A stretch of 64,000 bases of DNA from an uncultured Bacteroidales bacterium (GTDB taxonomy: Bacteria > Bacteroidota > Bacteroidia > Bacteroidales > Paludibacteraceae), in NCBI GenBank assembly GCA_900317345.1, contig ONGK01000005.1, forward strand, positions 32,099 through 96,098. The letters are read 5' to 3'. The position numbers and the translations under genes are program-made. How positions within the stretch are numbered: position 1 is the first letter of the stretch; every line of letters starts with the position of its first letter. The notes beneath the pieces were generated by a model, which did no database searches, was not told the DNA's origin, and saw only the letters and a list, made by a program, of their open reading frames with translations. Positions 4,059-60,743 of the stretch are shown one piece after another.

Positions 4059-4934
4059 ATGAAAGGAATCATTTTAGCGGGTGGCAGCGCAACACGTCTC
4101 TACCCATTGAGCAAAGCGATTAGCAAACAAATCATGCCGGTGTATGACAAGCCCATGATTTATTATCCTCTTAGTACCCTCATGCTGGCGGGCATCCGTG
4201 AAGTGCTGGTTATCAGTACGCCGCGTGACCTGCCGATGTTTGAAGAGTTGCTGGGCGACGGCAGCCGCATTGGCATGAAACTGCATTATAAAGTGCAAGA
4301 GGTGCCGAACGGTTTGGCGCAAGCGTTTGTGCTGGGCCGTGAGTTCCTCAATGGTGAACCCGGATGTCTTATCTTGGGCGATAACATGTTCTACGGCCAG
4401 CATTTCGGCCATATGCTCAAGGAGGCGGTGGCTTCCGCGCAATCCGGAGGTGCATGCATCTTCGGCTACGAAGTGGCGGACCCGCGTGCTTACGGAGTGG
4501 TGGAATTTGACGAAGAAGGCAAGGTGCTCAGCCTGGAAGAGAAACCGGCGAACCCCAAGAGCAATTATGCCGTGCCGGGACTGTATTTCTACGATGCCAC
4601 CGTGTGCGAGAAAGCAGCGAACCTCAAACCCAGCGCGCGTGGAGAATATGAGATCACCGACCTCAACAAGCTTTACCTGTCTGAAGGAACGCTCAAGGTG
4701 AAACTCTTCAGCCGTGGCTTTGCATGGCTCGACACCGGTAATTGCGACAGTCTGCTCGAGGCCGGTAACTTCATCGCCACTATTCAGAACAGGCAGGGAT
4801 TTTACGTCAGCTGTATAGAAGAGATTGCTTGGCGCAACGGATGGATTAGCACCGAACAGCTTGCTGCACTCGGAAAAGAAATGAAAACAGCATACGGACG
4901 CTATCTGGAACGGGTAGCCGAAAAGGGATTCTGA
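4059..4934 (+). CDS. rfbA: glucose-1-phosphate thymidylyltransferase
   Basis: MKGIILAGGSATRLYPLSKAISKQIMPVYDKPMIYYPLSTLMLAGIREVLVIS... is the canonical RmlA N-terminus, and the 291-aa length fits. Confidence 0.92.
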   Translation: MKGIILAGGSATRLYPLSKAISKQIMPVYDKPMIYYPLSTLMLAGIREVLVISTPRDLPMFEELLGDGSRIGMKLHYKVQEVPNGLAQAFVLGREFLNGEPGCLILGDNMFYGQHFGHMLKEAVASAQSGGACIFGYEVADPRAYGVVEFDEEGKVLSLEEKPANPKSNYAVPGLYFYDATVCEKAANLKPSARGEYEITDLNKLYLSEGTLKVKLFSRGFAWLDTGNCDSLLEAGNFIATIQNRQGFYVSCIEEIAWRNGWISTEQLAALGKEMKTAYGRYLERVAEKGF

Positions 4935-4935
4935 T

Positions 4936-19147: not shown

Positions 19148-22100
19148 CTAACGGACTAATATCCGTCCTTCTATTGTATAAACCTTCTCCCCGCGGAGGA
19201 TGTAGATAGTACCATTAATGAGCACCTTTGTACATTGTACATCGTCACTTTGTACATCTTCAAAACCTTGGCTCTTTTTCGTAGCTGTGAATTGCGCAGT
19301 GTAGTCTGCATCTGCGGAAGCCGCCACAATAGCCGGTGACCATCCGCTGAACTCGTAGGTGTAGTTGTCGTCTTCGGCGCGTGTAGGTGCTGCACCACTA
19401 TAAGCAGGCATTGTGCCTTCTTTTACCTGCGAAGATTGCAAAACCGTATTATCCCAGTTAAGGAAACGGATAGTGTAATACTCCGGTTGCGGTGTGTCAC
19501 CGGCACAGACAGCGGTTAGAGTTAGGTTCTTTATCTCCCATGTAGCGTAAGCAGAGGCAGTACTCTTATACTTAAATGCGAATACGGTGTTTGCGCCAAC
19601 CATCGACACTGGGACATTAATCGTCACATTAACAAATGTCCAGTTAGTGTTACTTGCGTATGGTGAGATAGTCAGTTGTTGCCACTGCGAGGCTGCTACG
19701 CTGCCTTTGTAATCGGGCGTCACCCACAAAGTGAGTTCGTCAGAAGGATTGCTTGCATAGCGGTGCGCGTGGTTGAAGGCGAGAGTGACAGTCTGCATGC
19801 CGTTCAGGTTCTTTGCAGGGGTCATCAGGTAAGCAGTATAGCCGCCTTGCTTCTTACCTACAGCACCGTAACTGCTGTTATAAGTCCATACAGACGTATT
19901 GTCTGTTGTGATTTCTCCCAAGCCGCTTCCGCCGGTCTGCAGCCAACTACCGCTGACATTCTCGCATTCAGAAACCGTTTTCTGAGTTGCCCTGTATTGA
20001 GCCGTGTAGGTGGTATTGGCGGTTGCAGGAACAATCACCGGATACCAGCCACTGAACTCATACGTGTACGTATCATCCTCCGGGCGCACAGGAGTGGTGC
20101 CTGTATATACGGGCGTTTCTCCTTCAAGAACCTGCGAGGACTGGAGTTCTGTACCATCGTAATTGACAAAAGTGATGGTATAGTAAGTGTCGCTTTCAAC
20201 GGTGACGACGCATGAAGCGGACAGACTGCCTGCATAGGCCGTGATACGCGCCGAGCCCTTTCTAATGGCCGTAACCAGCCCTGTATTCCGATCAACCGTA
20301 GCAAAAGAGGGCTTGTTGCTTGTCCATGTAACCGCCGGCAGGAGCGCATTAGCAGGCGTAGGTACAACCACCATTTGCACCGTCTCGCCCTCATAGAGGA
20401 AAACAGAGTCCTCGCTCAATGCGATAGAAGTGAGTTCCACTTCAACAGCATTTACAGTAAAGGTTACGGATGCCGTTAGCGTACCACAAGTAGCAGTTAC
20501 TGTCGCTGTTCCTGCAGCCAACGCTTCCACAACTCCATTTTCATTTACAGCCACCACGTTGGGTGCATCGGTTGACCATATTATCTCCGGCACGAACGAA
20601 GTTGCCGCAGGTTCTGTGGTGACGGTAAGCTTATTCACATCTCCGACTTCTACAACATGTTCGTAGTTCTCGTTGATAGCCATGCTTGTCGGGTTATATT
20701 GCAGAACCGTATAATTGCGTTGCGCGGATATACCGTTGTATTTGGGATTGGTAACGGTGACCGTGGCAGTTCCTTCTCCCACACATTGTACGACAGCCAG
20801 CGATGCACGATACGTATTACCGGAATAGACAAGCGTGGTATCGTCCTTGTAGGATGCGATTGTCAACACCGACTCATCGCTACTCTGCCATGCAAACGGC
20901 GCATAGGAAAGAGGTTGGGTTGTATATGCGCCCACGATATATTCCCAGTTAAGGGTATATTTGGCATTTGCGTCCTTTCCTTCTAGCCATTCCGCATCTC
21001 CTATGCGACGAGATTTGAGGACTGCCGGATAGTAATTATTTATGTTCGGTATTTTGATATTCAATGTGCATTTCTTGGCATAGTTGCCATCTTCGGTAGT
21101 CGCAGTAATAACAACCGTAGTGGTATAGCTGATAATACCCACGCGCACAAAGCCGTTTTCATCTACCGGCGCAATAGTCGGTTTGTTGGTAGACCAAGTA
21201 ATATTCTGATTGGCTGCATCTTCCGGTATAACGGAAGCATGCAATTGAATACTATCGCCAATCATGATATCTACGCTCGTTTCTTGCAGCGTGATGCCGG
21301 TTACTGTTATCGGTTCAGGACTATTTTCTACATTTGGGTGGAAGAGACGCAGGAACGGATAGCCGTCATTGATGGAGTCATTGCGTCCCCAGACAGTAGT
21401 GAAGTCCCAACCGGTGTAGTTGCTCATTGTGTGCAAGGAGAAGGAACTCTTTGCCGACGAGTCTGTGCCCGGTTCAGCCACCATTTCTCTATCGTAATAA
21501 ACAGAGGTAGCTGCTTTTGCCACACGTGTGTGCGATGCACTATAGCAGTTGGTAAACGTGATCGTGTTGCCGCTATTATCCGGTCCGACCAAACCGCCAC
21601 CTTTGAGGGCATAGGGGTATTTGACAGACGGGTATTGCGCAATGTTCACACGCGAATAACAATTGGTCATAGTCAGCGTATTCAACCTTGCTCCGGCTAA
21701 TCCGCCCGCGTAACCGTCATACCAAGCACTTGTGCCGGCTTCATTATCAAAAGCAATAATCTGACCTTCCGCGAAACAAGTCTCTATGCTACAGCCATTG
21801 ATTCGACCGGCTATCATACCTACGTGAGAGGCGTTTTGCGTGGCTGCGTTACATTTGGTAAAGAGCCATTCTCCCGGATGATTACGTCCGTCTATCACAG
21901 AAGCCTTGATTCCCAGATTACGAATAATCGCTCCTGCACCCACACTTCCGAACAAGCCCCAACCATATTTACCTCCGTAAACATCCGCCGGAGCAGCGTT
22001 TAACTCACAGTACAGACCATAAATGATGTGTCCGTTACCATCAAATGTGCCGAGAAAATCCGTTCCGTCCTCATCTGCACTTGGTTGTCCTATTGGCTTC

Positions 22101-46413: not shown

Positions 46414-47532
46414 ATGGACAACTTCACCTTTAATGAGATTCATCAGCAGCCCGCTATGTGGCGCAAAGAACTGCAGGCGCTGTTGGCTGCTAAGGCTGAG
46501 ATTAGTGCATTCATGCACAAGTATTTAACCCCGGATACAGACATCGTCCTTACTGGTGCCGGTACGTCCGCTTTTATCGGAGATGCCTTACTTCCCGTAA
46601 TGCGTGGCATGTGGCAAAATGTGCGTTCCGTGCCGACAACCGACCTCATCACCCATTCGGAATATCTGCTCTCGAAAGAGCGTCCGTTGCTGCTCGTCAG
46701 CTTCGCTCGTTCCGGTAACAGCCCGGAGAGTGTCGGCGCTGTGAACTTGGCTAACAAGCTCTGCAAGAACGTGGCGCATGTCTACATCACCTGCAACAAA
46801 AACGGCAAACTGGCGCAACAGGCTGCAGGCAAAGACAACATCCTCCTGCTTCTCTTGCCCGAGGAAACCGACGACAAGTCGCTGGCAATGACCAGCAGCT
46901 TCTCCACCATGCTCCTTACCTGCCTCATGCTTGGTCATATTGACCGACTGGACAAGGATGCCGATATGATTGAGAAGACCGCTAAGAATGCGGAGACTGT
47001 GATTGCCGAGTATGAGGAGAAACTCAAAGCCATCGGCGAGCGTCCGTTCGAGCGTGGTGTCTTCCTCGGTTCCGGTGCTCTCAAAGGTATCGCAGAGGAG
47101 TGCCATCTCAAGCTGCAGGAACTCACCGACGGTGCTGTCGTTTGTAAGTTTGATAGCTTCCTCGGCTTCCGTCACGGACCGAAAGCGGTGGTCAACAACA
47201 AGTCGTTGGTAGCATACCTCATGGTCGATGACGAGAAGGTGCAGCGTTATGAGCGCGACCTCGTTAAGCAGGTCGATGCTAATAACACACCGGTAGCACA
47301 AGTCATCGTCATTGCAGGTCGCAAACCTGAACTGCCGGGCGTGAAAGCGGACCTCGTTGTGGCAATGCCGTATGGACCGAAGGATACCGATTTCTATGGT
47401 ATCGTACCATACGTACTCGTTGGCCAGCTCCTCGGCTTCTATGCTTCGAAGGCACACGGCCTTAACCCCGATGCTCCATCCGTTTCCGGAAACATCCACC
47501 GTGTGGTAGAAGGTGTCACCATCTATGAATAA
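46414..47532 (+). CDS. agaS: SIS-domain sugar-phosphate isomerase/deaminase, AgaS-like
   Basis: 372 aa. EIHQQPAMW, double SIS layout (TGAGTSAFIG...SFARSGNSPES...). The length fits AgaS. Confidence 0.75.
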   Translation: MDNFTFNEIHQQPAMWRKELQALLAAKAEISAFMHKYLTPDTDIVLTGAGTSAFIGDALLPVMRGMWQNVRSVPTTDLITHSEYLLSKERPLLLVSFARSGNSPESVGAVNLANKLCKNVAHVYITCNKNGKLAQQAAGKDNILLLLLPEETDDKSLAMTSSFSTMLLTCLMLGHIDRLDKDADMIEKTAKNAETVIAEYEEKLKAIGERPFERGVFLGSGALKGIAEECHLKLQELTDGAVVCKFDSFLGFRHGPKAVVNNKSLVAYLMVDDEKVQRYERDLVKQVDANNTPVAQVIVIAGRKPELPGVKADLVVAMPYGPKDTDFYGIVPYVLVGQLLGFYASKAHGLNPDAPSVSGNIHRVVEGVTIYE

Positions 47533-47566
47533 AAGAATTGTAAATAACTAAATTGTAAATATCACT

Positions 47567-48796
47567 ATGGCAAAAACTGAGAATATCCTCCGCGTAATGG
47601 AGGAGCGTAAAAAAGCAACTGGAGTTCCTATGACACTTTTTGCGGCTTGCCCGAACTCCCTGTCTGTAATCAAAGCATCGTTCCGTGCTGCAAAGCGTAA
47701 TAACTCGCCTATCTATTTCGCTACCACCCTTAATCAGGTGGACTGCGATGGCGGTTATACCGGCATGACGCAGGAGATCTTCACCAAGATTCTTGCTCGT
47801 GAGGCTGCGGCTGTGCACTATACCGGACCGTACGTAGTGGCTATCGACCATGGTGGCCCGTGGCTCAAGGATATTCAGTCCATCGAGCGTTGGGACACCG
47901 AGCGTGCCATGAATGGCGTCAAGAAGAGCTATGAAGCAGCTATCCTTGCCGGATACGACCTCATTCACGTGGACCCGACCGTAGATATCTTCCTGCCGAA
48001 GGGCCAGATTATTGACATCCATGTGGTTGTAAAGCGCACGGTTGAGTTAATCAAGCATGCCGAGGATTTCCGCAAGGCGCATAATATCGCTCCTATCTCC
48101 TATGAGGTAGGTACAGAAGAGGTGCACGGAGGTCTGGCTGACGAGAAGACCTTCGATACCTTCCTCGAGGGCTTGAAGAAAGGTCTGCACGAGGTAGGTC
48201 TGGATGATATCTGGCCTTGCTTCATCGTAGGTAAGGTAGGTACCGACCTTCACACTACCTTCTTTGATGCGAATGTAGCACGTGAACTGACAGCAAAAGT
48301 TCGTCCGTATGGTAGCTATATCAAGGGTCACTATTCCGATGATGTAGATAACCCGGAGGATTATCCGAAGGCAGGCATGGGAGCAGCGAACGTAGGTCCG
48401 GAGTTCACCATGAATGAGTATGACGCACTGGCTGAACTCGAGGAAGAGGAGAAGAAACTGCATGCAGAAGGCAAAGTGGCTCAACTCAGCAACATGACCA
48501 AGGTGCTCTGGCAATGCGTTTATGACTCCAACCGCTGGAAGAAATGGCTCCGTGGTGACGAGGTAGGAAAAGACCTCAGCGAGTGCTCGCCTGAGCGCCA
48601 GCAGTGGCTCGTGAAGACCGGTTGCCGTTATATCTGGCAGAAACCGGAAGCGCTTGTAGCTCGTCAAATGCTCTATGATAACCTTGAGCGCCTCGGAATC
48701 CAGGCGGAGGAAGTGGTCCTCATGCGCATCGAGCATAATATGGATAAGTATTACAATGCATTTAATATTGTTAATCTTAACGATTATCTGAAATAA
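47567..48796 (+). CDS. GatZ/KbaZ-family protein (tagatose-bisphosphate aldolase accessory subunit / tagatose-6-P epimerase family)
   Basis: 409 aa. ...FAACPNSLSVIKASFRAAKRNNSPIYFATTLNQVDCDGGYTGMT... parallels the GatZ/KbaZ N-terminal block. Confidence 0.7.
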   Translation: MAKTENILRVMEERKKATGVPMTLFAACPNSLSVIKASFRAAKRNNSPIYFATTLNQVDCDGGYTGMTQEIFTKILAREAAAVHYTGPYVVAIDHGGPWLKDIQSIERWDTERAMNGVKKSYEAAILAGYDLIHVDPTVDIFLPKGQIIDIHVVVKRTVELIKHAEDFRKAHNIAPISYEVGTEEVHGGLADEKTFDTFLEGLKKGLHEVGLDDIWPCFIVGKVGTDLHTTFFDANVARELTAKVRPYGSYIKGHYSDDVDNPEDYPKAGMGAANVGPEFTMNEYDALAELEEEEKKLHAEGKVAQLSNMTKVLWQCVYDSNRWKKWLRGDEVGKDLSECSPERQQWLVKTGCRYIWQKPEALVARQMLYDNLERLGIQAEEVVLMRIEHNMDKYYNAFNIVNLNDYLK

Positions 48797-48802
48797 ACAG
48801 TC

Positions 48803-50185
48803 ATGAAAAAGCTGTATATCTTTACGCTGATGGTGGTGATGCTGGGGGCATGCGGGTGCGAAAAACCGCAGTCTCCGGTTGATCCGCAGCCTTATGAGGA
48901 ACCGGTGATGGTGAATCCAGATATGTCGCTCATTACGAGTTCGGTACCCGTCACGGATAATTGGATTTGGAGTGGAAAACCGGCTATCACCATACGTATT
49001 GAGAATAAAAACGACAGTGCGGTAAAACTGGATACAAAGGTGAAGATAACCACGGATACCAAAAGCAATGTGGTTACGCTCACCGATACCGTCATCGTTT
49101 CAGCTCGGAGTGTGAAAGAGTTTGTCGTGAAAACGGACGAAGATATAGATCCCGGTTTCTATCGTGCCGCATGTTACGTTCATGGTAAGACGGTGCGTAA
49201 TTTCTGCTTTGGTATTGACCCCTTCGATATCGTTTCTGCGCCGGATAAGCAAACCGACTACGACCAGTTCTGGCAGACGGCGAAAGACCAGCTGGCTGAG
49301 GTGGATATGAAGGCTACCCTCAAGGAGATAACCGAGCGTAGTTCGGCCAAGCGCAAGGTCTATCTGGTGGAGATGTACTCTGTACCGGATGGTCTAACCG
49401 GAGCCCCTGTGAAGATTCGGGGATATTATCTCGAGCCGCAGGATGGAGCCCAACATCCGGTTATCCTCCACTTCTATGGGTATGACACCCAGGGAAGCAA
49501 ATCGAAATGCGAGTGCCCCTATGGTGGCTCGTCGGAGTATGCCGAGTTCTATCTCTCCCACCGCGGACAATACCTCAACAACCGCCCTGCGGGAACGAAC
49601 CCCGGCGTGGATGAGGAAACCGTTAACATCTACGGCGACTGGTTTGCATACAATTTCGGAGACAAGGACAGCTATTATTATCGCGGTGCGTTTATGGATT
49701 GCGTGCAGGCTGTGCGCTTCATGGCAACGCGCGAGACAAGCGATATGACGCATCTCTTCGCGGAAGGTTCCAGCCAAGGCGGGGCACTCAGCTATGCTTG
49801 TGCTGCCCTCAGCGACTATCCGTTCACGGCACTGGCGCCCAATGTGGCGTTCCTGGGTGACTTCCCGGACTATTTCAAGATCGTAGGATGGCCTGCTGAA
49901 ACGGCTAAGAAAGAGGCGAAAAAGAAAGGAATGACGGACGAAGAGATGTATACCTTCCTCTCGTATTTCGACACCAAGAATCTGGCAACCCGTATCTCGG
50001 CCGCTGTGCTGGCGAGTAGCGGACTGCAGGATGGCACATGCCCACCGCATACCAATATTGCGCCGTTTAACAACCTCCGCACACCGGAGGCTGACAAAGA
50101 GTATATCTTCGCGCCGGAGATGCAGCATGACTTTCCTGCCGGATGGGTTTCCAAATGGAATAACTTCTTTAAAGCAAGAATGTAA
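48803..50185 (+). CDS. lipoprotein with CE7 acetyl esterase (AXE1/cephalosporin-C deacetylase) domain
   Basis: Lipobox LGACGC. An Ig-like spacer of about 120 aa, then the AXE1 core with nucleophile elbow AEGSSQGGALS and C-terminal ...HDFP. Confidence 0.75.
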   Translation: MKKLYIFTLMVVMLGACGCEKPQSPVDPQPYEEPVMVNPDMSLITSSVPVTDNWIWSGKPAITIRIENKNDSAVKLDTKVKITTDTKSNVVTLTDTVIVSARSVKEFVVKTDEDIDPGFYRAACYVHGKTVRNFCFGIDPFDIVSAPDKQTDYDQFWQTAKDQLAEVDMKATLKEITERSSAKRKVYLVEMYSVPDGLTGAPVKIRGYYLEPQDGAQHPVILHFYGYDTQGSKSKCECPYGGSSEYAEFYLSHRGQYLNNRPAGTNPGVDEETVNIYGDWFAYNFGDKDSYYYRGAFMDCVQAVRFMATRETSDMTHLFAEGSSQGGALSYACAALSDYPFTALAPNVAFLGDFPDYFKIVGWPAETAKKEAKKKGMTDEEMYTFLSYFDTKNLATRISAAVLASSGLQDGTCPPHTNIAPFNNLRTPEADKEYIFAPEMQHDFPAGWVSKWNNFFKARM

Positions 50186-50198
50186 TTAATAAATCAAC

Positions 50199-51143
50199 AT
50201 GAAAACATTTGATATTATCGCTTTAGGCGAATTAAACGTCGATTTGATTCTCAATCAGATAGAAGGGCAACCGGAAATAGGTAAAGAGAAGTTTGCTAAG
50301 CGAATGACACTTACCTTGGGTAGTTCCACCGCTATCTTTGCTGCAAACGCAGCGGCACTGGGTGCTAAAGTGGCCTTCTGCGGCATGATTGGAAACGATA
50401 GTTTCGGCGACCTCGTGGAGACAAGTCTTCGCGCAAAAGGGGTGGACACACGCTATCTCATCCGCCAGGATAAGTACGCTACCGGTGCTACCATCTGCAT
50501 GAGTTATGATGAGGACCGTGCGAACCTGACTTACCAGGGCGCCATGGATTACATGGGGCTGGCAGACATCAACCCCGAGGTCTTCAAGCAGACCAAGCAT
50601 ATCCATATTTCCTCTATCTATATGCAGAGCGGTGTGAAGCGCGACCTCATGAAGATTCTCGAGCTCTGCAAAGAGAATGGTGTTACTGTCACGCTGGATA
50701 GCCAGTGGGATCCGACTGAGCAATGGGACCTCGACTACAAAGCCGTCCTGCCTTTGCTCACCGTCTTCATGCCCAATGAGACCGAACTTAAGTTCCTCAC
50801 ACGCTCAGAGACCTTGGAAGAGGCCATCGAGAAGATTCGTCCGTACACCAACGCTGCGGTTATCAAGTGCGGCAGTAAGGGCTCTATCCTCATGCGCAAA
50901 GGCCAACCCGACCGCAAGCAGGCGGCATTGCTCAATAAGAATGTAGTCGATTGCATCGGTGCCGGTGACTCGTTCAACTCGGGCTTCATCACACGTCTCG
51001 CTGCTGGCGATCCGTTGGATAGATGCCAGGAGTATGGTAACATGACCGGAGCTGTCAATACCACTGCAGCTGGTGGCACCACCGCTTTCACGTGCCGTGA
51101 AGACGTAGAGCGTATCGGCCGTGAACGCTTCGGCTGGAATTGA
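50199..51143 (+). CDS. PfkB-family sugar(-phosphate) kinase
   Basis: 314 aa. ALGELNVDL, GGSTAIFA-like block, and the C-terminal DCIGAGDSFNSGF motif. Confidence 0.8.
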   Translation: MKTFDIIALGELNVDLILNQIEGQPEIGKEKFAKRMTLTLGSSTAIFAANAAALGAKVAFCGMIGNDSFGDLVETSLRAKGVDTRYLIRQDKYATGATICMSYDEDRANLTYQGAMDYMGLADINPEVFKQTKHIHISSIYMQSGVKRDLMKILELCKENGVTVTLDSQWDPTEQWDLDYKAVLPLLTVFMPNETELKFLTRSETLEEAIEKIRPYTNAAVIKCGSKGSILMRKGQPDRKQAALLNKNVVDCIGAGDSFNSGFITRLAAGDPLDRCQEYGNMTGAVNTTAAGGTTAFTCREDVERIGRERFGWN

Positions 51144-51166: not shown

Positions 51167-53524
51167 GTGAAAAAAATCGCTTTCATAGTACTCTTCGTAG
51201 CAGCGGCGCTTCATGCGTCAGCTGCTACGTGGTATGTGCGTACAGACGGACAGGACGGCAATGACGGCAAGTCCTGGGAGAACGCGCAGGCGTCTATCCG
51301 TCTGGGCATAGATAACTGTCGCGTGGGCGACACGCTGCGCATAGAGGAGGGTACGTATTATGAAGGCATCATCCTCAAGGAGGGAATAACGATTATCGGC
51401 GAAGGACAGGTTATCCTCGATGGTACCGGCCTGAATACGCGTCTTATCTCCTGTGTCGCTGATTGCAAACGGCCTACGCGTATCGAGCATATCACCCTGC
51501 AGAATGCCCGTCATAACCAGCGAGGCGGAGCAGCGTGGCTGCGTGGAAAGGTCGTCATGCGGCATTGCGTCATTCGCGGATGCAGCGGTTTGCAGTGCGG
51601 AGGTGTGCTTATCAAAGGTGACCTGCCGGAAGCCTCAGCACTCGGTGCACGACTCGAAGATTGTCTCATTTACAACTGCTCGGCTACGGGGCATGACTGG
51701 CCCGATGCAGGCGGAGTGGCGAACTTCGATGGTGTACTGAGGAATTGCATCATCGCTAATAACTATGGAGATCGATACGGAGGTATCCACTCCGAGAGTT
51801 CGGTCTATAGTTGTACCATGTGGGGAAACAAGTCCGAGTATGGCTTTGTGGACCCATCCAATTATGTCTCGGATGAGAGCACGTCCGGCATGAGCCGCGC
51901 GGACGAAGGTTTCGAAGACCATTTCTTTGCGAAACCCTGGCTGGACGCGAATAACGAAGCGGAGAACGGTCCGCATTTCCGTGACCCATCAACGTTTGTC
52001 GGGGTGCCCATTACCGATGCGGAGCAGGCTATCATGCTGGCAGCCGACTATACCATCGGCGCGCCGACGCACCGAATCGCCTCCATGCCGCCTGCTTCAC
52101 CGCGCGACTATGCCCCAACGAATCTTGTCAAGATACCTGAACCCTTACCCTATACAGTTCCTTCTTTCATCGGTCATCTCCTAGACAATACAGCACCGCT
52201 CGTGCCGAGAGAGCAACCCTATTGCATGGTGGCTACCATCAATGGTGACCCCAAGACCCGAATGGGCTTCTGCTGGTTTACCAACGAAGGTGTCACAAAC
52301 GGCGAAGTGCAAATCATTGCTAAAGCCAATGCTACAGAAGAGGACTTTAATCGTGAAATCTCAAATCACAAATCACAAATCACAAATGTCGTAGCCACCG
52401 CAACGACCACTCCGCCATTGCACTACGCCATCTCCTCTTCGGGTATTCTGAAGAAGGCGAAGATAGATAAAAGCACCGCTTTCCGCTATGTTAGCCATAA
52501 AGCGCTGGCTCAGAACCTCACGCCCGGAACGGATTATTCCTATCGCGTCGGCTATGAGGGACATTGGAGCGAGATAGGCCATTTCCGCACCGCGGATGCA
52601 GAGCAGGGCGAATTTTCCTTCATCTACATGACCGATAGTCATATACAAGATAAGGAATACGTGGATGAGGCGCGCTTGTGTGCGGATGCGGTCGCGCGTA
52701 ATGAGCGCAAAGCACGCTTCTGTGTCTTCCCGGGCGACTTTGTCGATACCGGTACGGACAATAACTCCGAATGGGAATGGGAGCGCTGGTTCGAAGAAGC
52801 GCTTAAGCCCGTTATTATGGCGATGCCGATTGTTCCGACCGATGGTAACCATGACGACAGCCCGCTGCTTAACTATTCCTATCATTTCAATACCGATACC
52901 ACATTTAATTTAGAGACGAAAATCCGTCCGCAGTTTGCGGGCATCAACTATAGTTTCTGCTATGGAAATATGCAACTCATTGCATTCTCCATGCAGGATT
53001 TCTGGCGAGGAGAATATAACTATACTTCCGGCACCTCGGAGTTCCTCACGCGCGATTTGGGCGGTTGGTTCAAACGGCAAGTGGCGGCAGCGCCGGATGC
53101 TACATGGCGTGTAGGCTTGGTGCATAAGAATCTCTTCTCCGGCTCTGACCATCAGCGCGATAAAGAGACCCCGCTGCTTCGTGCTACCATGTTGCCGCTG
53201 ATGAAGGAGTGTAATATCAATCTTGTCCTGCAGGGTCATGATCATTGCTATGAAGTCATCGGTCCCGTGGACTCTACGCTCTATTTCATTGGTGCTACGT
53301 GTGGCGCGAAACGCTATACACCGCTCACGCGCGAAGAGATGGACGCATCCAAGCATATCCACCATGTGGAGAACTATTTCGACCTCTTCTCGCATCTCGC
53401 GCAACCCGGCGCACCGAGTTATACCCGCGTGACTGTGAAGAAAAACCAGCTGTTGCTCGAGACCTTCAAGGTCCTTCCCAACGGCCAAACAGAATTGTTT
53501 AACACCATTTATCTAAATAAATAA
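51167..53524 (+). CDS. secreted beta-helix + purple-acid-phosphatase-like metallophosphoesterase (paralog P1)
   Basis: GTG start with signal peptide MKKIAFIVLFVAAALHASA. Beta-helix opening TWYVRTDGQDGNDGKSWENA plus C..NC/NN repeats. Metallophosphoesterase motifs MTDSH, PGDFV, TDGNHD, GLVHKN, QGHDHCYE. Confidence 0.8.
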   Translation: MKKIAFIVLFVAAALHASAATWYVRTDGQDGNDGKSWENAQASIRLGIDNCRVGDTLRIEEGTYYEGIILKEGITIIGEGQVILDGTGLNTRLISCVADCKRPTRIEHITLQNARHNQRGGAAWLRGKVVMRHCVIRGCSGLQCGGVLIKGDLPEASALGARLEDCLIYNCSATGHDWPDAGGVANFDGVLRNCIIANNYGDRYGGIHSESSVYSCTMWGNKSEYGFVDPSNYVSDESTSGMSRADEGFEDHFFAKPWLDANNEAENGPHFRDPSTFVGVPITDAEQAIMLAADYTIGAPTHRIASMPPASPRDYAPTNLVKIPEPLPYTVPSFIGHLLDNTAPLVPREQPYCMVATINGDPKTRMGFCWFTNEGVTNGEVQIIAKANATEEDFNREISNHKSQITNVVATATTTPPLHYAISSSGILKKAKIDKSTAFRYVSHKALAQNLTPGTDYSYRVGYEGHWSEIGHFRTADAEQGEFSFIYMTDSHIQDKEYVDEARLCADAVARNERKARFCVFPGDFVDTGTDNNSEWEWERWFEEALKPVIMAMPIVPTDGNHDDSPLLNYSYHFNTDTTFNLETKIRPQFAGINYSFCYGNMQLIAFSMQDFWRGEYNYTSGTSEFLTRDLGGWFKRQVAAAPDATWRVGLVHKNLFSGSDHQRDKETPLLRATMLPLMKECNINLVLQGHDHCYEVIGPVDSTLYFIGATCGAKRYTPLTREEMDASKHIHHVENYFDLFSHLAQPGAPSYTRVTVKKNQLLLETFKVLPNGQTELFNTIYLNK
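52356..52387 (+). repeat. heptanucleotide repeat (AAATCAC) inside P1 coding sequence
   Basis: AAATCTC AAATCAC AAATCAC AAATCAC AAAT: three perfect units, one degenerate unit and a partial unit. It encodes ISNHKSQIT, which is absent from paralogs P2 and P3. Confidence 0.9.
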
Positions 53525-53538
53525 AAACACGTATTGTT

Positions 53539-55305
53539 ATGAAAAAGAAATTCTATTATCTGTTGATGCTTGTATGCTGCATCTGTCTTGTAGCTTGTGA
53601 GAAACCGGTTGAACCCCAACCAGGACCGGGACCGGATCCGGAACCGGGACCCGACACAACAGCCGTTGTGCCAAAGACAGAGTGGGAGAAAGCCGATTCT
53701 GCGTATACGGAGCATGACTACACGATTCCGAGCCACACAGCCCTTAAACTGGCTATCCATGTTTGTGCTGCCAACCCGACCGAGGAGAATCTGGAGGCGA
53801 TGCGCCAAAAGATCACGGAGTTGCAGCCCAAAGAGATGCCTTACTGCATGGTAGCTACGATTAACGGTGACCCGCAGACGCGTATGGGTTTTGCTTGGTT
53901 CACGAATGATAGCATCTTTGATGGCGAGGTGCAGATTGTTGCTATGAAGGATGCTACGGAAGAGGACTTCAACGGAGGAAACGTGACGACGATAAAAGCG
54001 GAAGCAACTCGCACCAAGAAAGCGCTGCGTTATGTCGGTCAGTGCTCGTATATCTATACGAAGGCTGACCTATCGGCTGGAACCAAATATTTCTATGTCA
54101 GCCATAAGGCGCTGGCGGAGAATCTGACACCGGGCACCGACTATTCTTGGCGTGTGGGATATGGCGACTATTGGAGCCCGATTGCCCAATTCCGTACAGA
54201 GGATGCCGCGCAGGGTGAGTACTCGTTCATCGTTATGTCCGATAGTCATATCATGAACAAGGAATATGTGGATTATGCACGTCGTTGTGCCTTAGCGGCT
54301 GTCAAGACCGTGCCGGATGCACGCTTCTGCTGTTTCCCCGGCGACTTCGTGGAGGATGGCACACTGGCGAACTCCGAATGGGAGTGGGAGCGCTGGTTTG
54401 AGGAGTCGATGGAGCCTATCATCAAAAGGATGCCTATTGTGCCTACAGATGGTAACCATGACGACAGCCCGAATATCAACTATACCTACCATTTCAATAC
54501 AGATAGATCGTTCAACGAACTTACTACCAAGCCGCAATTCGAGGGAATTACCTATAGTTTCGTCTATGGTGATGCACTCTTCCTCGTCTTCTCTATGCAG
54601 GATTTCTGGCGCTTGGATTATAGCTATGTGGACTGGAATTCAGCTTATCTGACCGATTATCTGGGATATTGGTTCCGTCGGGAAACAAGCAAAAACCCGA
54701 ATACCAAGTATCGTATCTCGCTTGCGCACTTCAACCTCTTCTCCGGTTCCGATCACTCGACCGATGAAGAGCCGCCTTTGTTCCGTGCTTGTATGCTGCC
54801 GGTCTTCAAGGATTGCGAGATTGATGTTGCGCTCCAAGGACACGATCATACTTATGAGGTTATAGGTCCGGTTAATCCCGATAGTCTCACACCTATTCTC
54901 TCCGCTATTTCTGATCGTCAGCAAGTTGCAGGTGGTTCGGAGAAGAACATGACAGGATATGAGGGAGGTACATATCGCACGGACGATGGTACGTTCTATT
55001 TCATCGGCGCTACCTGTGGCCGTAAACGCTATTCTCCGCACAGCCGTGAGCGGATGGAGAGAGAATATACGGATGACCCGGATGTGTTGAGAGATGGCAA
55101 ACATCATAACGTGAAGAACTATTTCGACCTCTTCACCGGTATGTTCGGTCAGCCCGGTAATCCTTGCTTCACCAAAATCACGGTGAAGGATGACTGCCTC
55201 GAGTTCAACTCGTATACAGCGGATGATGATCGCGGCAATGTGTCTTTGCTCAACACTATGCGTGTTGTCCGCACCAAAGACCACTCTATCCCGATGCTGC
55301 AATAA
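53539..55305 (+). CDS. lipoprotein purple-acid-phosphatase-like metallophosphoesterase (paralog P2)
   Basis: Lipobox CLVAC followed by the Pro/Gly linker PQPGPGPDPEPGPD. Same core as P1 and P3 (MSDSH, PGDFV, TDGNHD, QGHDHTYE). No beta-helix and no C-terminal tail. Confidence 0.8.
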   Translation: MKKKFYYLLMLVCCICLVACEKPVEPQPGPGPDPEPGPDTTAVVPKTEWEKADSAYTEHDYTIPSHTALKLAIHVCAANPTEENLEAMRQKITELQPKEMPYCMVATINGDPQTRMGFAWFTNDSIFDGEVQIVAMKDATEEDFNGGNVTTIKAEATRTKKALRYVGQCSYIYTKADLSAGTKYFYVSHKALAENLTPGTDYSWRVGYGDYWSPIAQFRTEDAAQGEYSFIVMSDSHIMNKEYVDYARRCALAAVKTVPDARFCCFPGDFVEDGTLANSEWEWERWFEESMEPIIKRMPIVPTDGNHDDSPNINYTYHFNTDRSFNELTTKPQFEGITYSFVYGDALFLVFSMQDFWRLDYSYVDWNSAYLTDYLGYWFRRETSKNPNTKYRISLAHFNLFSGSDHSTDEEPPLFRACMLPVFKDCEIDVALQGHDHTYEVIGPVNPDSLTPILSAISDRQQVAGGSEKNMTGYEGGTYRTDDGTFYFIGATCGRKRYSPHSRERMEREYTDDPDVLRDGKHHNVKNYFDLFTGMFGQPGNPCFTKITVKDDCLEFNSYTADDDRGNVSLLNTMRVVRTKDHSIPMLQ

Positions 55306-55324
55306 TCCTTTAAATATAATTATT

Positions 55325-58300
55325 ATGAAACGATTCTTATTTCTCTTGACTCTCGCTACAGCCGTGCTGTGCGCGAATGCAGCTAATCATTACGTTAGCC
55401 AGACTAATGGTAATGATAGTAATGATGGTTTGTCTTGGGAAACAGCCATGCAAACTATCACCGCAGGATTTAGTGCCTGCTCGGATGGTGACACGCTGTT
55501 TATAGCCGCAGGCACATACGGCGAGCGTGTAACGGTTAAAAGCGGTTCGTTTGTCTCTATGATGGGAGGCTACGAAGCTGCAACAGGTATGCGTGACCCC
55601 GAGGTGTTCAAAACCATTATGGATGGTTCGGAGCTCGGCAAAATCTTAATCAAAGCAGAAGCAGAACCGACTATCCCGCTGCTCTATGATGGCTTGATTT
55701 TGCAGAACGCGGAATACTCGTCAAACGGTGCCGGGGTGTATATGCGCGGTAATATGACGGTCAATAACTGTATCATCCGTAATTGCAATTCGCAAGGTGG
55801 CGGAGGTGGTATCTATGTCGATATCGCGGATAAAACCTTGCCTACTGCTATCAGCAACTGCTTGATAGAGTTGTGTACGTCTAATGGTTCCGGTGGTGCT
55901 ATTCATAATACCGGTGCGCTCATTGAGAATTGTATTATTCGCGGTTGCTCCGGTACGTATGGTTCTATCGTTCTCCGTAATGGAGGTGTTGTACGCAACT
56001 GTGTGTTGTATAATAACACGGGCGGTGATAGCTGGCCTAACTCGGGCGGTATATATAATCCGGACGGTATGGTGGTCAATTGTACGTTTGCGAATAACGC
56101 CGGTGCTAAATATGCCGGAATCCACTCTGATAACAGAGTATTCAACTCTGTCATGTGGGGAAACAGAGGCGAAGAGGGTTTTGCCGACCCTGCCAACTAT
56201 ATTGCAGGTGCTCCGTCCAGCAATAATATAGCCGATCAGGGTTTTAACAGCGAGTCATTCGTAAGTCTCTCGCTCAACGAAGATAATAATGCAGTAGACG
56301 GTCCGCATTTCGTGGCGCCGACCAATTTTGTCGGTGTTCCTCAAAATGCTGCTCAGATAGCCATTATGCAAGCCGCAGACTGGTCTATCGAAGCGGGTTC
56401 GTTCCTCATTGACAAAGGTTTGGCATCGCAGGCTCCGGAAACGGATATCAACGGCGTGGTTCGTCCTAAAGGCGACGGAGTGGACGTTGGTGCGTATGAG
56501 TATGACCCCAATGCACCCGTCATTCCTTTGCAGGGATTCAATATCTATCAGGATTCTGTCTTTATCAATGTAGAGAGCATGGAGGCCTTAAGTGTGCTAT
56601 TCACGCCGCGCAACGCAACGAATAGAACGCTGAATTGGGTAAGCGATAATCCTGCTATTGCTACGGTAGATAATCATGGAACAGTGGTCGGCGTTGCAGA
56701 AGGACAGACCATCATCCGCGCAACAAGCGTAGATGGAGGGTTCACCGATACCGTGGTAGCAGTCATCTCTCCCAAACCACCGGTTTACTATCCCGTAGAG
56801 GTTTTGGCTGCTGACTCGCTCTATCCGATGGAGAACTACACGGTGCCTTCCTTCATTCCATTCTTGGTAGCCAAAGAGGCTGCGCGTATCGATAGCTTCT
56901 CTGCTACGCCGGAGGAAATAGCTTCTATCGCAGGTAAGCTTGAGGTGATGTACGCTGAAGCAGCGAAATTGGTGAGCAAGGAAGAACCGTATAACATGGT
57001 GGCTACGTTCAACGGCAACCCGCGTACACATATGGGCTTTGCATGGTTCACCAATGAAGGCATTACCGAAGGAAAAGTGCAAATCATAGCGAAAGAATAT
57101 GCCACAGCAGCGGACTTCGAGGGTGACCAAGTGCTCACATTGAATGCGGTAGCTACCACAACGGTGCCGTTGCGCTATGCTGTTTCCACGTCCGGTCTGC
57201 CTAAAGCGACGCGCTTGTCGCCTAAGACGGCCTTCACCTATGTCAGCCACAAGGCACTGGCTACGAATCTTATGCCGGGTACCGCCTATTGCTGGCGTGT
57301 GGGATATGAAGGGCACTGGAGCAAGATTGGCCATTTCCGCACACAAAATGCAGCGCAAGGCGAATATTCCTTCATCTATATGTCCGATAGCCACATCCAG
57401 GATGCTGAGTATGTGGAGAATGCTAAATGGTGCGCCACCACGGCTGCCAATACGGTGCCGGAAGCACGCTTCTGTCTCTTCCCGGGCGACTTTGTAGAAA
57501 CAGGAACCGACAATAACTCCGAGTGGGAATGGGAGCGTTGGTTTGAGGAATCTATCAAACCTGTTATCATGAAGATGCCGATTGTGCCGACCGATGGTAA
57601 CCACGATGATAGCCCACTGCTCAACTACGATTACCATTTCAATACCGATTGGGGATTTGCTAACGCTGCGCAGACCAAACCGCAGTTCAAGGGTATTACC
57701 TATAGTTTCGTCTATGGCGATGTGCTCTTCCTCGTGTATTCGCTCCAAGACTGGTGGCGCGCACATGGTAGTAGTGAAACGGGCATGACTTCGACCTATC
57801 TGTCAACGGATGTGAAAAACTGGTTCCTCGAGCAGTGCGCTGCTCACCCGAATACCAAGTATCGTGTCACGCTGTCGCATAAGAATATCTTCTCCGGTTC
57901 CGGTCACTCTGTAGATGGTGAGATACCGATGTTCCGTGAAATTATGTTGCCGATTCTCAAGGAGTGCGAGATAGACCTCGCTATCCAGGGACACGACCAC
58001 TGCTATGAGGTTATCGGTCCGGTGGACTGGGATAGCCAAACCGTTGTGGAAGGCTCTGTAGCGAATGTGGTGGATACCATTGTTGACACCAATACCAATA
58101 TAAACGGCAAGTGGGGTGGCGAGTTCACCACGGATGATGGTACCATGTATTTCATCGGTGCTACCTGCGGACGCAAACGCTACTATCCGTACAGCCGTCA
58201 GAAGATGGAGGAGAAATACACCACCGATCCGGAATTGTTGTTCGATGGAAGTCACCACAATGTGAAGGATTATTTCGATCTCTTTACCGGTTTGTTCGGT

Positions 58301-58576
58301 CAGCCTGGGGCTCCCTCTTTCTCCAAGTTCACGGTGAAGAATGATGGCATCGAGGTGAATTCCTATACTGCTTCCGCAAGCGGAAAAGCAACTCTTATCA
58401 ATACCATGAAGGTAAAGCGCACCAAACCGCATACCGTTCCGTATCTTGGTATTAACGAAGTAGAGGTGCAGATGAAAGAAGGCGAGAAATTCATCCGCAA
58501 CGGACAGATGTTCATCCTTAAGAATGGACAGATATACAACGTCCTTGGCCAGAGGGTAGAGAAAATGGAACAATAA
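55325..58576 (+). CDS. secreted beta-helix (choice-of-anchor-Q-like) + Big_2 + metallophosphoesterase + C-terminal tail (paralog P3)
   Basis: Track ORF 55190-58576 trimmed to ATG 55325 (MKRFLFLLTLATAVLCANA). HYVSQTNGNDSNDGLSWETA, ...DINGVVRPKGDGVDVGAYEYD, Big_2 (NWVSDNPAIATVDNHGTVVGVAEGQT). Core motifs MSDSH/PGDFV/TDGNHD/QGHDHCYE. Tail ...KFIRNGQMFILKNGQIYNVLGQRV. Confidence 0.8.
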   Translation: MKRFLFLLTLATAVLCANAANHYVSQTNGNDSNDGLSWETAMQTITAGFSACSDGDTLFIAAGTYGERVTVKSGSFVSMMGGYEAATGMRDPEVFKTIMDGSELGKILIKAEAEPTIPLLYDGLILQNAEYSSNGAGVYMRGNMTVNNCIIRNCNSQGGGGGIYVDIADKTLPTAISNCLIELCTSNGSGGAIHNTGALIENCIIRGCSGTYGSIVLRNGGVVRNCVLYNNTGGDSWPNSGGIYNPDGMVVNCTFANNAGAKYAGIHSDNRVFNSVMWGNRGEEGFADPANYIAGAPSSNNIADQGFNSESFVSLSLNEDNNAVDGPHFVAPTNFVGVPQNAAQIAIMQAADWSIEAGSFLIDKGLASQAPETDINGVVRPKGDGVDVGAYEYDPNAPVIPLQGFNIYQDSVFINVESMEALSVLFTPRNATNRTLNWVSDNPAIATVDNHGTVVGVAEGQTIIRATSVDGGFTDTVVAVISPKPPVYYPVEVLAADSLYPMENYTVPSFIPFLVAKEAARIDSFSATPEEIASIAGKLEVMYAEAAKLVSKEEPYNMVATFNGNPRTHMGFAWFTNEGITEGKVQIIAKEYATAADFEGDQVLTLNAVATTTVPLRYAVSTSGLPKATRLSPKTAFTYVSHKALATNLMPGTAYCWRVGYEGHWSKIGHFRTQNAAQGEYSFIYMSDSHIQDAEYVENAKWCATTAANTVPEARFCLFPGDFVETGTDNNSEWEWERWFEESIKPVIMKMPIVPTDGNHDDSPLLNYDYHFNTDWGFANAAQTKPQFKGITYSFVYGDVLFLVYSLQDWWRAHGSSETGMTSTYLSTDVKNWFLEQCAAHPNTKYRVTLSHKNIFSGSGHSVDGEIPMFREIMLPILKECEIDLAIQGHDHCYEVIGPVDWDSQTVVEGSVANVVDTIVDTNTNINGKWGGEFTTDDGTMYFIGATCGRKRYYPYSRQKMEEKYTTDPELLFDGSHHNVKDYFDLFTGLFGQPGAPSFSKFTVKNDGIEVNSYTASASGKATLINTMKVKRTKPHTVPYLGINEVEVQMKEGEKFIRNGQMFILKNGQIYNVLGQRVEKMEQ

Positions 58577-58595: not shown

Positions 58596-60743
58596 ATGAA
58601 AAGGTTATTTTCATTTTTCGCTGCAATGCTGGTGGCGTTCGTAGCGAATGCAGCGGTCATTAATATCAATACCAATACCCCCGATGCACTCCGTAAGGCG
58701 CTGGCCGGTGCTGCCAGCGGTGATATTATTGTTATGGCTGCCGGAACATATGTAGAATCCAACGGCGATTATATTGCTTTCACCGGCAAGGAGGTAACGG
58801 TGATGGCGGAACCGGGCGCGGAAGTTATTGTTGTGCCCCAAGTGCCGGTTCGTTTGAAATCCGGTGCACGCGCAGAGTTCATCAATATCAAGTTTGACTG
58901 TGGTCATATTAAGGACAAAGGCTCGTACACTGAGATTATTGTGCCGGCTGATGGCACAGCCAATAAACGCGTAATCCTCGATGGATGTGAGTTCTACGGC
59001 TGGAAGCAGAAAGATTATGCCATTGTTCACACCCGCACGGATCGTCAGTTGGATACGCTGGTTATCAATAACTGCTATTTCCACGACAACCTGTATAATT
59101 GTGTATGGCTGAGATATCCAAGTATCGCTTGCTTGCGCATTACCAATTCCACTTTTACCAACGTCGCTACGGATGCAGCCGCACCTTCAATCGGTGTGAT
59201 TCAAGTCGATGCTACGAGTGGAGATATGCTCATCGACCATTGTACGTTCTACAACTGTGAAGCGAAGAATACCGACTATGGCGCCATTAAGATACCGGGC
59301 GGAGCTCCGATTGTTTCCAATTGTATCTTTGCTATGCCGGAGGAGTATGCTAACGGCCGCGCTATCCATAATGCAGCCGGAGAGGTTAAAAACTGCCTCA
59401 CCTTCAACTACACATCTGATGAGAACACCGGTATCCATTCCGGTCCTACCATCACTGCTTGCCTCCAGGCTAATCCGCTCTTCGTGGATGCTCCTAACGG
59501 AGACTTGCGTATTCAGGGTGGTTCTCCGGCGTTAGGAGCAGGCACGGAAGGATCTGACCTCGGTGACCCGCGCTGGATTCCGCAGATGGAGTATTATCTC
59601 GCGGGAAGTATGACCGAATGGGGACCTGATCCGTTGTATAAACTGGTGAAGAATCCGGAGAATGAAGAGGAGTATATGATTGCCAAAACGTTTTATGCCG
59701 GCGACCAGTTTAAGATTGCCAAGTCCGATGGTTTGACTATCGCGAATACAGACTGGTATCCATCCGGCATGGACAACAACTATCAGATTACTGCTTCCGG
59801 CAACTATACCGTATATTTCCGTCCGGACGGACAAGGCGGCGAAGGATGGCACGAAGGCTATATCTATGCGCAAGCAGAGAGTTTAGGTCCGTGGGACAGT
59901 TGGTTTGGCGATGCAAGCATGCAGCAGGAGACCAATTCGTATCTCGCTTATGATCCTATCGCTGAGAAAGTCACGGTCTTCATCCGTAATGACAAGAACG
60001 GACAATGGCAGGCGCAGGTGAAATACCAAGGTATGCCTGCTGAGGCGGATAAATGCTATCATGTGGCCCTCAAGATGAAGTCAAACCATGATATCACCGG
60101 CATCACCCTCAAATGGCAGGACGACAATAATACGCCGAATGTGATTTATGAGAACCAGTCCATCAGCCTCGCTGAGGACGAAGAGTTTATCTATGATGCC
60201 GTAGTAGCAGGAGTGGTAGGAGAGAAGGGTAGCAATGGTATCCTTGTTCTTGACTTCGGTTTCGCCCACAACGGCGATATCATTGAGGTCTATGGTGTGA
60301 CTATTGAAGAAACAGCATGTCCTGCTCCTCCGATTTACTACCTCGTGGGTTCGATGACCGACTGGGCAGCAGAAGCGGAATACCTCTTTGCGGAGAACCC
60401 GGAAACGGAAGGCGAATACTTCCTTACCACCACTCTCGCCGTAGGCGATGCTATCAAAGTGGTGGGTGTTCAGGATGATGACGAGACCTATTATCCGAAT
60501 GGTTTGAGCAATGAGTATGTAGTGGACGCTGCGCATGCAGGGGAGACCATCGTTTACTTCCGTCCTGCCGGCAATGCGGAATGGGCTGCGTTTGGCGGTT
60601 ACTTCTTCATCCCGGATAACGGACAGGGAATTGAGGATGTCAATATCGATACCAAAGCCACAAAGCTTATCCGCAATGGACAGCTCTTCATTCGTAAGAA
60701 TGGTAAGATTTATAACGTTATCGGGCAGCAAATCGCCCGATAA
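58596..60743 (+). CDS. secreted beta-helix protein with CBM-like modules and C-terminal tail
   Basis: 715 aa. Signal peptide. The N-terminal roughly 300 aa look beta-helical (GTYVESNGDYIAF, DHCTFYNC, NCIF, ANPLFVDAPNGDLRIQGGSPALGAG). Two YYL(A/V)GSMT.W modules flank a CBM4/9-like domain. Tail KLIRNGQLFIRKNGKIYNVIGQQIAR. Confidence 0.7.
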   Translation: MKRLFSFFAAMLVAFVANAAVININTNTPDALRKALAGAASGDIIVMAAGTYVESNGDYIAFTGKEVTVMAEPGAEVIVVPQVPVRLKSGARAEFINIKFDCGHIKDKGSYTEIIVPADGTANKRVILDGCEFYGWKQKDYAIVHTRTDRQLDTLVINNCYFHDNLYNCVWLRYPSIACLRITNSTFTNVATDAAAPSIGVIQVDATSGDMLIDHCTFYNCEAKNTDYGAIKIPGGAPIVSNCIFAMPEEYANGRAIHNAAGEVKNCLTFNYTSDENTGIHSGPTITACLQANPLFVDAPNGDLRIQGGSPALGAGTEGSDLGDPRWIPQMEYYLAGSMTEWGPDPLYKLVKNPENEEEYMIAKTFYAGDQFKIAKSDGLTIANTDWYPSGMDNNYQITASGNYTVYFRPDGQGGEGWHEGYIYAQAESLGPWDSWFGDASMQQETNSYLAYDPIAEKVTVFIRNDKNGQWQAQVKYQGMPAEADKCYHVALKMKSNHDITGITLKWQDDNNTPNVIYENQSISLAEDEEFIYDAVVAGVVGEKGSNGILVLDFGFAHNGDIIEVYGVTIEETACPAPPIYYLVGSMTDWAAEAEYLFAENPETEGEYFLTTTLAVGDAIKVVGVQDDDETYYPNGLSNEYVVDAAHAGETIVYFRPAGNAEWAAFGGYFFIPDNGQGIEDVNIDTKATKLIRNGQLFIRKNGKIYNVIGQQIAR

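Follow-up and report, generated by a model that had tools for sequence, protein, structure and literature searches.

Age, module loss and export signals of a metallophosphoesterase triplet in a genus of rumen Paludibacteraceae

How old are three adjacent genes for one enzyme, and how did they come to carry different modules and export signals? The question is raised by a 64,000-nucleotide stretch of DNA from an uncultured Bacteroidales bacterium of the family Paludibacteraceae (contig ONGK01000005.1, positions 32,099 to 96,098; here called the window). Three co-directional genes for exported metallophosphoesterases, P1, P2 and P3, follow one another on its + strand with spacers of 14 and 19 nucleotides. 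The original prediction took them for a recent tandem triplication with module shuffling, which had given rise to soluble, lipid-anchored and tail-sorted forms of one enzyme. That they are adjacent paralogs of one enzyme with conserved blocks is borne out by alignment and by the Pfam domains they share. Their history appears to be a different one: the three genes probably form an old, genus-restricted triplet of binuclear metallophosphoesterases with the purple acid phosphatase (PAP) fold, which diverged by stepwise loss of modules and would act on the same class of substrate at different places.

Age and relationships of the three genes

Over the 498 shared columns of their cores, P1, P2 and P3 are 56-59% identical in amino acid sequence and 60-65% identical in DNA, with third codon positions 42-50% identical. 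The synonymous divergence (dS) between them, by the Nei-Gojobori method, is 1.5-3.6, which means that synonymous sites are saturated. The longest identical DNA run between paralogs is 19-24 nucleotides, and no conversion tracts are seen between the window paralogs when the cores are compared as DNA. Since dS is saturated and no identical run exceeds 24 nucleotides, there has been neither recent duplication nor recent gene conversion. The long near-identical blocks that had suggested a recent event are real in the proteins but do not extend to the DNA. In the three-way alignment, the block NSEWEWERWFEE...MPIVPTDGNHDDSP is invariant across P1, P2 and P3, while PYCMVATINGDP is exact in P1 and P2 and takes the form PYNMVATFNGNP in P3. 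These blocks are catalytic motifs conserved at the protein level.

When 57 cores from the same genus and from three other genera of the family are placed in a maximum-likelihood tree, each of the three genes has a clade of its own, with support of 100/100 for P1, 100/100 for P2 and 97/96 for P3, and each clade contains a single member from each of about ten species. Orthologs of all three occur in dozens of further species-level genomes, and the three genes keep their separate identity in about 40 genomes. P2 shares 66-76% identity with its orthologs from other species, compared with 58% between P2 and P3. Because the orthogroups have one member per species and the gene order is conserved, the duplication predates the eight other species that share this order. 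A recent tandem triplication in this lineage, with copies that are now subfunctionalising, would explain why the genes are adjacent and co-directional with highly conserved protein blocks, and why most other genera of the Paludibacteraceae lack them. It is nevertheless scarcely credible in view of the saturated synonymous sites, the divergent third positions, the short identical runs, the presence of each copy in dozens of species-level genomes in the same gene order, and the closer relationship of P2 to the P2 of other species than to the P3 beside it.

The triplet is lineage-specific, as had been proposed, and does not consist of three anciently separate families kept across the order: 16 genomes from other families of the order gave two weak partial matches only (E values of 2.7e-6 and 6e-5, at 23-27% identity), and the expansion is at the level of the genus. 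Within the family, a match is found in four of 33 genera. The other three (g18, g23 and g40) mostly have a single gene per genome, 37-52% identical, with a long N-terminal region and a canonical type IX secretion system (T9SS) C-terminal domain (CTD). The enzyme family is also small: out of 1.84 billion cluster representatives, 132 match at E<=1e-30. P1, P2 and P3 together thus appear as an old, genus-restricted family in a rumen lineage of the Paludibacteraceae. One genome of g18 (G230) has a protein of 1182 residues (locus L056, 1995-5540, minus strand) with two full cores of PAP_N and phosphoesterase domains and a canonical CTD at the end; each core is most closely related to the other one, and the two therefore stem from an internal duplication.

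Separate triplets, grouped by subclade in the tree, occur in other subclades, represented by G024, G258 and G244 and by G270, and the G024-type clade is set apart with support of 100/99. One explanation is that the three genes predate the genus subclade by far and have been homogenised from time to time, within each lineage, by gene conversion, so that the triplets of these other subclades would be the same ancient genes. Recombination is indeed active at the locus, and the other subclades likewise have one short form of about 600 residues and two long forms beside AXE1 and DUF5123 genes. However, the window paralogs are free of conversion tracts and stay distinct in about 40 genomes, the residue at which the signal peptide meets the core differs between the short forms from one of the three subclades to the next, and one paralog of the well-supported G024-type clade has a different kind of beta-helix. 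This explanation is quite unlikely. For the origin of the separate triplets, parallel duplication is tentatively favoured over concerted evolution, because of the missing conversion tracts and the differing domain junctions.

Loss of modules and the two forms of P2

Each of the three proteins has its own combination of modules. P1 (51167-53524; 785 residues from a GTG start, ending in NTIYLNK) has a signal peptide of the signal peptidase I (SPI) type at residues 1-19, with ALHASA before and ATW after the predicted cleavage site. This is followed by a shortened right-handed beta-helix, a Pfam PAP_N domain (residues 355-475, nucleotides 52229-52591) and a Pfam metallophosphoesterase domain (residues 485-695, nucleotides 52619-53251). 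P1 has neither a Big_2 domain nor a C-terminal tail. P2 (53539-55305; 588 residues, ending in SIPMLQ) begins with a lipoprotein signal (residues 1-20, nucleotides 53539-53598; lipobox LVAC, Cys20). After the cysteine come a Pro/Gly-rich linker, a helical linker, PAP_N (residues 105-220, nucleotides 53851-54198), the metallophosphoesterase domain (residues 230-439, nucleotides 54226-54855) and a C-terminal beta domain, with no beta-helix and no tail. P3 (55325-58576; 1083 residues) has an SPI signal, with LCANA before and ANH after the predicted site, and a full beta-helix; the open reading frame (ORF) that opens at 55190 is an in-frame upstream extension only, and the signal peptide MKRFLFLL begins at 55325. 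Its further modules are a choice-of-anchor-Q stretch (NCBIfam choice_anchor_Q, residues 355-394, nucleotides 56387-56506), a Pfam Big_2 domain (residues 404-477, nucleotides 56534-56755), PAP_N (residues 555-673, nucleotides 56987-57343), the metallophosphoesterase domain (residues 683-894, nucleotides 57371-58006) and the C-terminal tail GINEVEVQMKEGEKFIRNGQMFILKNGQIYNVLGQRVEKMEQ (GINEVE...EKMEQ; residues 1042-1083, nucleotides 58448-58573). All of these features lie on the + strand. Pfam finds Pur_ac_phosph_N and Metallophos in all three proteins, Big_2 in P3 alone and a weak Beta_helix match in P1; NCBIfam assigns no family to P2, and its matches to P1 and P3 are marginal. The module differences and the gaps in P1 that had been noted earlier are confirmed by alignment, in which the P3 tail measures 42 residues.

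The layout of the ancestor is indicated by the relatives outside the triplet. Outgroups and basal members of the genus, represented by G046 and G156, have the layout of P3, in the order signal peptide, beta-helix, Big_2, PAP_N, phosphoesterase and C-terminal sorting domain. The g18 protein of G261 aligns with P3 over 1033 residues and has a canonical CTD, which scores 48 bits with TIGR04183, the same in both libraries; the domain scan of this protein covered its C-terminal end. The Pfam model Por_Secre_tail scores 42.8-46.6 bits in G221 and G118 and 23.3 bits in G046, the last under the 27-bit cut-off. G046, G261, G118 and G221 each have a single copy of the gene. The basal P1 member G020c (949 residues) keeps Big_2 and has no tail. 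Later P1 genes are without Big_2, and the subset that contains the P1 of the window is also without a 37-residue beta-hairpin after the GHDH motif. This hairpin is kept by P2 (residues about 447-483) and by P3, and in the model of P2 it forms strands at residues 457-462 and 474-480 with high confidence. In P1, the deletion junction lies between GPVD and STLYFIGATCG (53270-53275), and the gaps that flank YFIGATCG are of 37 and roughly 11 residues. The hairpin deletion is common to G003, G010, G022 and others, with about four changes on the P1 tree.

P3 therefore looks like the conservative copy with the ancestral architecture. P2 appears to have lost the beta-helix and Big_2, and P1 to have lost first the tail, then Big_2, then the loop. 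The layouts of the outgroups and of G020c make stepwise loss from a P3-like ancestor a better description of the window than module shuffling. A genuine exchange of modules is confined, as far as the domain layouts indicate, to another subclade: in G024_988 (locus L044, 3258-6221, minus strand; also in G258 and G244), the N-terminal beta-helix has been replaced by a helix of the DUF4957/DUF5123 type, which resembles that of the neighbouring gene.

P2 occurs in two forms. Of the 49 P2 orthologs, 29 show a lipobox but are tail-less, the other 20 pair an SPI signal with the tail, and none has both or neither; no mixed form is found among the 120 best database matches either. The lipoprotein form is derived, because the basal grade of the P2 tree is of the tail type. 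A single switch to the lipoprotein form was considered and set aside: the approximately unbiased test on the 57-row tree did not reject one origin (p 0.26), but the well-supported branches of the larger P2 tree force at least three changes of type. The counting of switches is, however, moot, because the tree of P1 and the DNA comparison show recombination. On the tree of the adjacent P1, the type of P2 changes 10 times, against 8.9 in shuffles, which is as at random. Two genomes, at loci L064 and L102, share 95-98% of their DNA sequence over P1 and the greater part of P3, but identity falls to 56-82% over the whole of P2 and the first 700 or so nucleotides of P3. This divergent block of about 2.6 kb (positions about 2850-5430) is the signature of a recombined cassette that carries either the lipoprotein or the tail form of P2. 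Since signal type and tail always travel together, they provide indirect evidence of alternative placement for the same enzyme. We suggest, tentatively and at a little less than an even chance, that P2 is a standing dimorphism of two whole-gene alleles with mutually exclusive modes of attachment, recombined between genomes that are about 95% identical, and that the tail is a surface-delivery signal which is interchangeable with lipidation and has replaced the canonical type A CTD in this genus.

Catalytic core, export signals and proposed placement

The metallophosphoesterase domain (PF00149) scores 50.5, 47.0 and 47.0 bits in P1, P2 and P3, against a cut-off of 21.5, and the N-terminal fibronectin-like domain that precedes it (PF16656) reaches 56.7, 47.8 and 48.3 bits, where the cut-off is 30. 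The metal-ligand motifs are intact in all three, with all five calcineurin-like motifs (DxH, GD, GNH(D/E), H and GHxH) present. In 43 aligned sequences of the P1, P2 and P3 types, D235-S-H237, G-D269, G-N306-H307-D, H397 and G-H435-D-H437 (P2 numbering) are invariant. Because every metal ligand is kept, all three enzymes are probably active.

The AlphaFold2 model of P2 has a mean predicted local distance difference test score (pLDDT) of 90.3 and a predicted template modelling score of 0.87. In Foldseek, its best match is wheat purple acid phytase (6gja), with an E value of 9.5e-22 and a template modelling (TM) score of 0.67 normalised to the length of the target; lupin PPD1 (3zk4) and kidney bean PAP (target-normalised TM 0.65-0.71) follow, and then PhoD. 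A profile search of the PDB also matches PAPs, at E 1e-14, while a single-sequence search of the PDB with P2 found nothing, so that PAPs are reached by profile and fold searches only. The plant PAPs (6gja, 3zk4 and 1kbp/2qfp) and, more distantly, PhoD of Bacillus subtilis (2yeq) share the PF16656 domain and the binuclear metallophosphoesterase domain with the proteins described here. In PAPs, the seven ligands are D, D, Y, N, H, H and H, with GDxG as motif I and the Fe(III)-ligand tyrosine in GDxxY. In the window, motif I is (T/S)DSH and motif II is GDFVD in P1 and GDFVE in P2 and P3. The fold is PAP-like, but a purple colour is not predicted, because the chromophoric tyrosine that defines PAPs is absent from motif II. 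The present proteins further differ from the plant enzymes in an identity of only about 14%, in an extra C-terminal beta domain of about 150 residues, in being bacterial and exported, and in the fusion of P1 and P3 to a beta-helix. The fold of this beta-helix gives no further clue: the model of P3 has a pLDDT of 81.6, and its fold search was uninformative on the beta-helix, with 9cdv ('Rhombotarget A') as best match and a weak match to pectin methylesterase.

The three proteins are predicted to leave the cytoplasm by different signals. Signal peptides were read by eye, and lipoboxes by eye and with the regular expression [LVI][ASTVI][GAS]C. The signals of P1 and P3 both have the AxA ending of the SPI type, while the lipobox L-V-A-C of P2, with Cys20, fits the signal peptidase II (SPII) pattern and has equivalents in 29 orthologs and in database matches. 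The tail is absent in all 36 P1 orthologs examined. A C-terminal sorting end is present in all 20 proteins of the P3 type, as the short tail in 18, a canonical CTD in L133 and a half-length form in L134. A hidden Markov model built from the tails of homologs finds that about 76 ORFs of the same genome end in the tail, compared with about eight canonical type A CTDs. The consensus is P.GIE(D/N)......KA.KVLRNGQL.I.R..K.Y...GQ.V, over about 40 residues, and examples in the window lie at 58448-58573 (+ strand), at 60621-60743 and at 19148-19270 on the minus strand. All five sampled genomes of the genus have from 27 to 59 or more copies each. The tail is rare or absent in the other sampled genera of the family, with none in the searched genomes of g18, g23 and g40. 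The T9SS genes of the same genome score above their cut-offs (SprA 2642 bits, PorU 860, PorV 433 and GldM 402). The PorU match is split over two frames, of 206 and 925 residues, at about 53190-53286 of contig C63, outside the window, and represents either an assembly error or a real frameshift.

A sorting role for the tail is suggested by its many copies across the genome, its expansion throughout the genus, the presence of the T9SS machinery, and its position, which is that of the canonical CTD of the outgroups. Both this orthologous position and the spacing of the tail from the end of the core fit a CTD that has been cut down, and it is reasonable to infer that export of the tail-bearing proteins depends on the T9SS. 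The proposal of soluble, lipid-anchored and tail-sorted forms stands to the extent that the predicted export routes differ and that each is conserved among orthologs, which fits specialisation by location; 'soluble' for P1 and 'tail-sorted' for P3 go further than the signals themselves.

From these observations, a P3-like ancestor may be proposed, with a Sec signal, beta-helix, Big_2, PAP_N, phosphoesterase and T9SS C-terminal domain. Its duplication, followed by stepwise loss of the tail, later of Big_2 and later still of the lid hairpin, would have given rise to P1, and duplication followed by loss would have left P2 as the catalytic core only. Most likely, the three enzymes would then share one class of phosphate ester as substrate and work in different locations. 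P3 would be exported through the outer membrane by its tail and hold a polymer through its beta-helix and Big_2, P2 would be tethered to the outer membrane by its lipid, and P1 would be soluble in the periplasm or in vesicles.

Several points weigh against this picture. Neither the P3 tail nor that of the downstream neighbour matches the T9SS models (TIGR04183 / PF18962) at E<=10. When the short tail is compared with canonical CTD profiles, it gives a 13-column match around YN..GQ.V with a probability of 7%, which is non-significant. At 42 residues, the tail is also below the length of CTDs processed by PorU, which have 67-88 residues and form a seven-strand beta-sandwich (PMC11285876). The surface-lipoprotein export signal reads C-X-K-(D/E)2, or S-D-D-D-D after the cysteine (PMC5080379). 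P2 has C-E-K-P-V-E-P at this position, and its orthologs have C-K-P-D-P, C-D-K-P-V or C-K-S-D-P; these contain a lysine, and their acidic residues are scattered and never form a pair. Because the fit is only partial, the predicted P2 lipoprotein could occupy either face of the outer membrane. Concerted evolution may, moreover, be the cause of the triplets in the other subclades. Finally, orthologs of P1, P2 and P3 in the syntenic species are 60-80% identical, compared with 86-97% for PfkB, so that these exported proteins evolve faster than their cytoplasmic neighbours; this could mean diversifying selection on surface antigens instead of division of labour.

In its full form, the antigen explanation holds that diversifying selection maintains both the copies and the alleles of P2 chiefly as variable surface antigens, which evade, for example, phage, protozoa or host antibody, and not as compartment-specialised enzymes. 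It would account for the fast evolution of the orthologs, for a divergent cassette between nearly identical flanks and for the random distribution of the P2 type on the P1 tree. It is harder to reconcile with catalytic residues that are invariant in all three orthogroups, with the stable architecture of each, and with P1, which is predicted not to be surface-exposed and yet is equally conserved as a separate gene. We regard the antigen explanation as unlikely, and division of labour among enzymes of different placement remains the probable one.

Homology of the short tail to the canonical CTD is not claimed, since the profile comparison is non-significant. The type A CTD (TIGR04183 / PF18962; for example in RgpB, HBP35 and PorZ) is likewise found at the extreme C-terminus of proteins with a Sec signal, and the short tail, which is mutually exclusive with lipidation, takes the place that the CTD has in orthologous proteins of outgroup genera. 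The two differ in length (42 against 67-88 residues) and in the three short strands that are predicted for the tail instead of a seven-strand sandwich; in the AlphaFold2 model, the tail consists of a flexible disordered linker and these three strands, at a pLDDT of 58-69.

The locus and its place in rumen biology

In its own genome (a 1.96-Mb assembly, 96% complete), P1, P2 and P3 are the sole copies, and they belong to a tightly packed unit. Upstream, genes for an AgaS-like protein, a GatZ-like protein, an AXE1-type esterase lipoprotein and a PfkB kinase (46414-51143, + strand) are conserved and end 23 nucleotides before P1. Downstream lies a conserved gene for a DUF5123/beta-helix protein (58596-60743, + strand), which has the same short tail at its end. 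The order GatZ-AXE1-PfkB-P1-P2-P3-DUF5123 beta-helix is conserved in eight other species. The syntenic unit thus joins the three genes to a sugar-phosphate module (AgaS/GatZ/PfkB), to a lipoprotein acetyl-esterase and to beta-helix proteins that bear the tail. The DUF5123/beta-helix gene directly adjoins the phosphoesterase gene in the outgroup genus g18 (G261), and also in G156, G217, G270 and G258. Since the pairing exists even in an outgroup genus, it predates the triplication, and the two proteins probably work together. In a basal lineage of the genus (RGIG4898; loci L089, L119 and L120, on one contig), a stretch of about 25 kb contains genes of the P1-like, P3-like and P2-like kinds, but these do not adjoin one another and the P1-like one runs in the opposite direction. 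The close packing of the genes in the window is therefore derived.

These neighbours, namely the AgaS, GatZ and PfkB proteins, the AXE1-type esterase lipoprotein and the tail-bearing DUF5123 protein, together with the fusion to beta-helix and Big_2, suggest, by inference only, a phosphorylated, acetylated glycan or another organic phosphate as the substrate. Database matches carry the names of uncultured rumen and gut Paludibacteraceae, and literature searches found no description of this phosphoesterase clade or of the short tail.

A similar known arrangement is the Cel5A-D cluster of the rumen Bacteroidales 'Candidatus Paraporphyromonas polyenzymogenes', with three T9SS-CTD forms and one single-domain SpII lipoprotein of a GH5 enzyme (Naas et al. 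2018, PMC5831590). The likeness lies in tandem paralogous enzymes with varied modules and the same mix of export routes. The Cel5 proteins differ in being GH5 cellulases with CTDs found by TIGR04183, a model that the tail described here fails, and the parts of that paper that were consulted report neither a tail-less periplasmic copy nor an allelic dimorphism between lipoprotein and tail. Riemerella anatipestifer has a T9SS-secreted metallophosphoesterase whose acid phosphatase activity has been measured (Niu et al. 2021, as cited in PMC12398890). From the description given there, to which the likeness is limited, this enzyme is encoded by a single virulence-linked gene of a pathogen and has no beta-helix fusion and no set of paralogs.

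The triplication in itself is ordinary, since it is common for exported enzymes of Bacteroidota to form growing families whose members shed modules, and a rumen cluster that combines lipoprotein paralogs with T9SS-sorted ones has already been published (PMC5831590). What the locus adds is a small, uncharacterised clade with the PAP fold whose conserved gene order ties it to the catabolism of sugar phosphates, to an acetyl-esterase and to beta-helix proteins. This conserved linkage would suggest that abundant, uncultured bacteria of the rumen use a phosphorylated glycan. Among the by-products, the cassette dimorphism of P2 and the replacement of a canonical CTD by a short tail on one enzyme core are the most useful. 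The series of canonical CTD, short tail, lipid anchor or no signal on a single catalytic core makes a test bed for the function of the tail, and the exchange of P2 cassettes shows that close relatives trade the export signals of this locus as whole units. If P2 is a standing dimorphism of the kind suggested above, its alleles would be a natural swap experiment on the tail versus lipidation.

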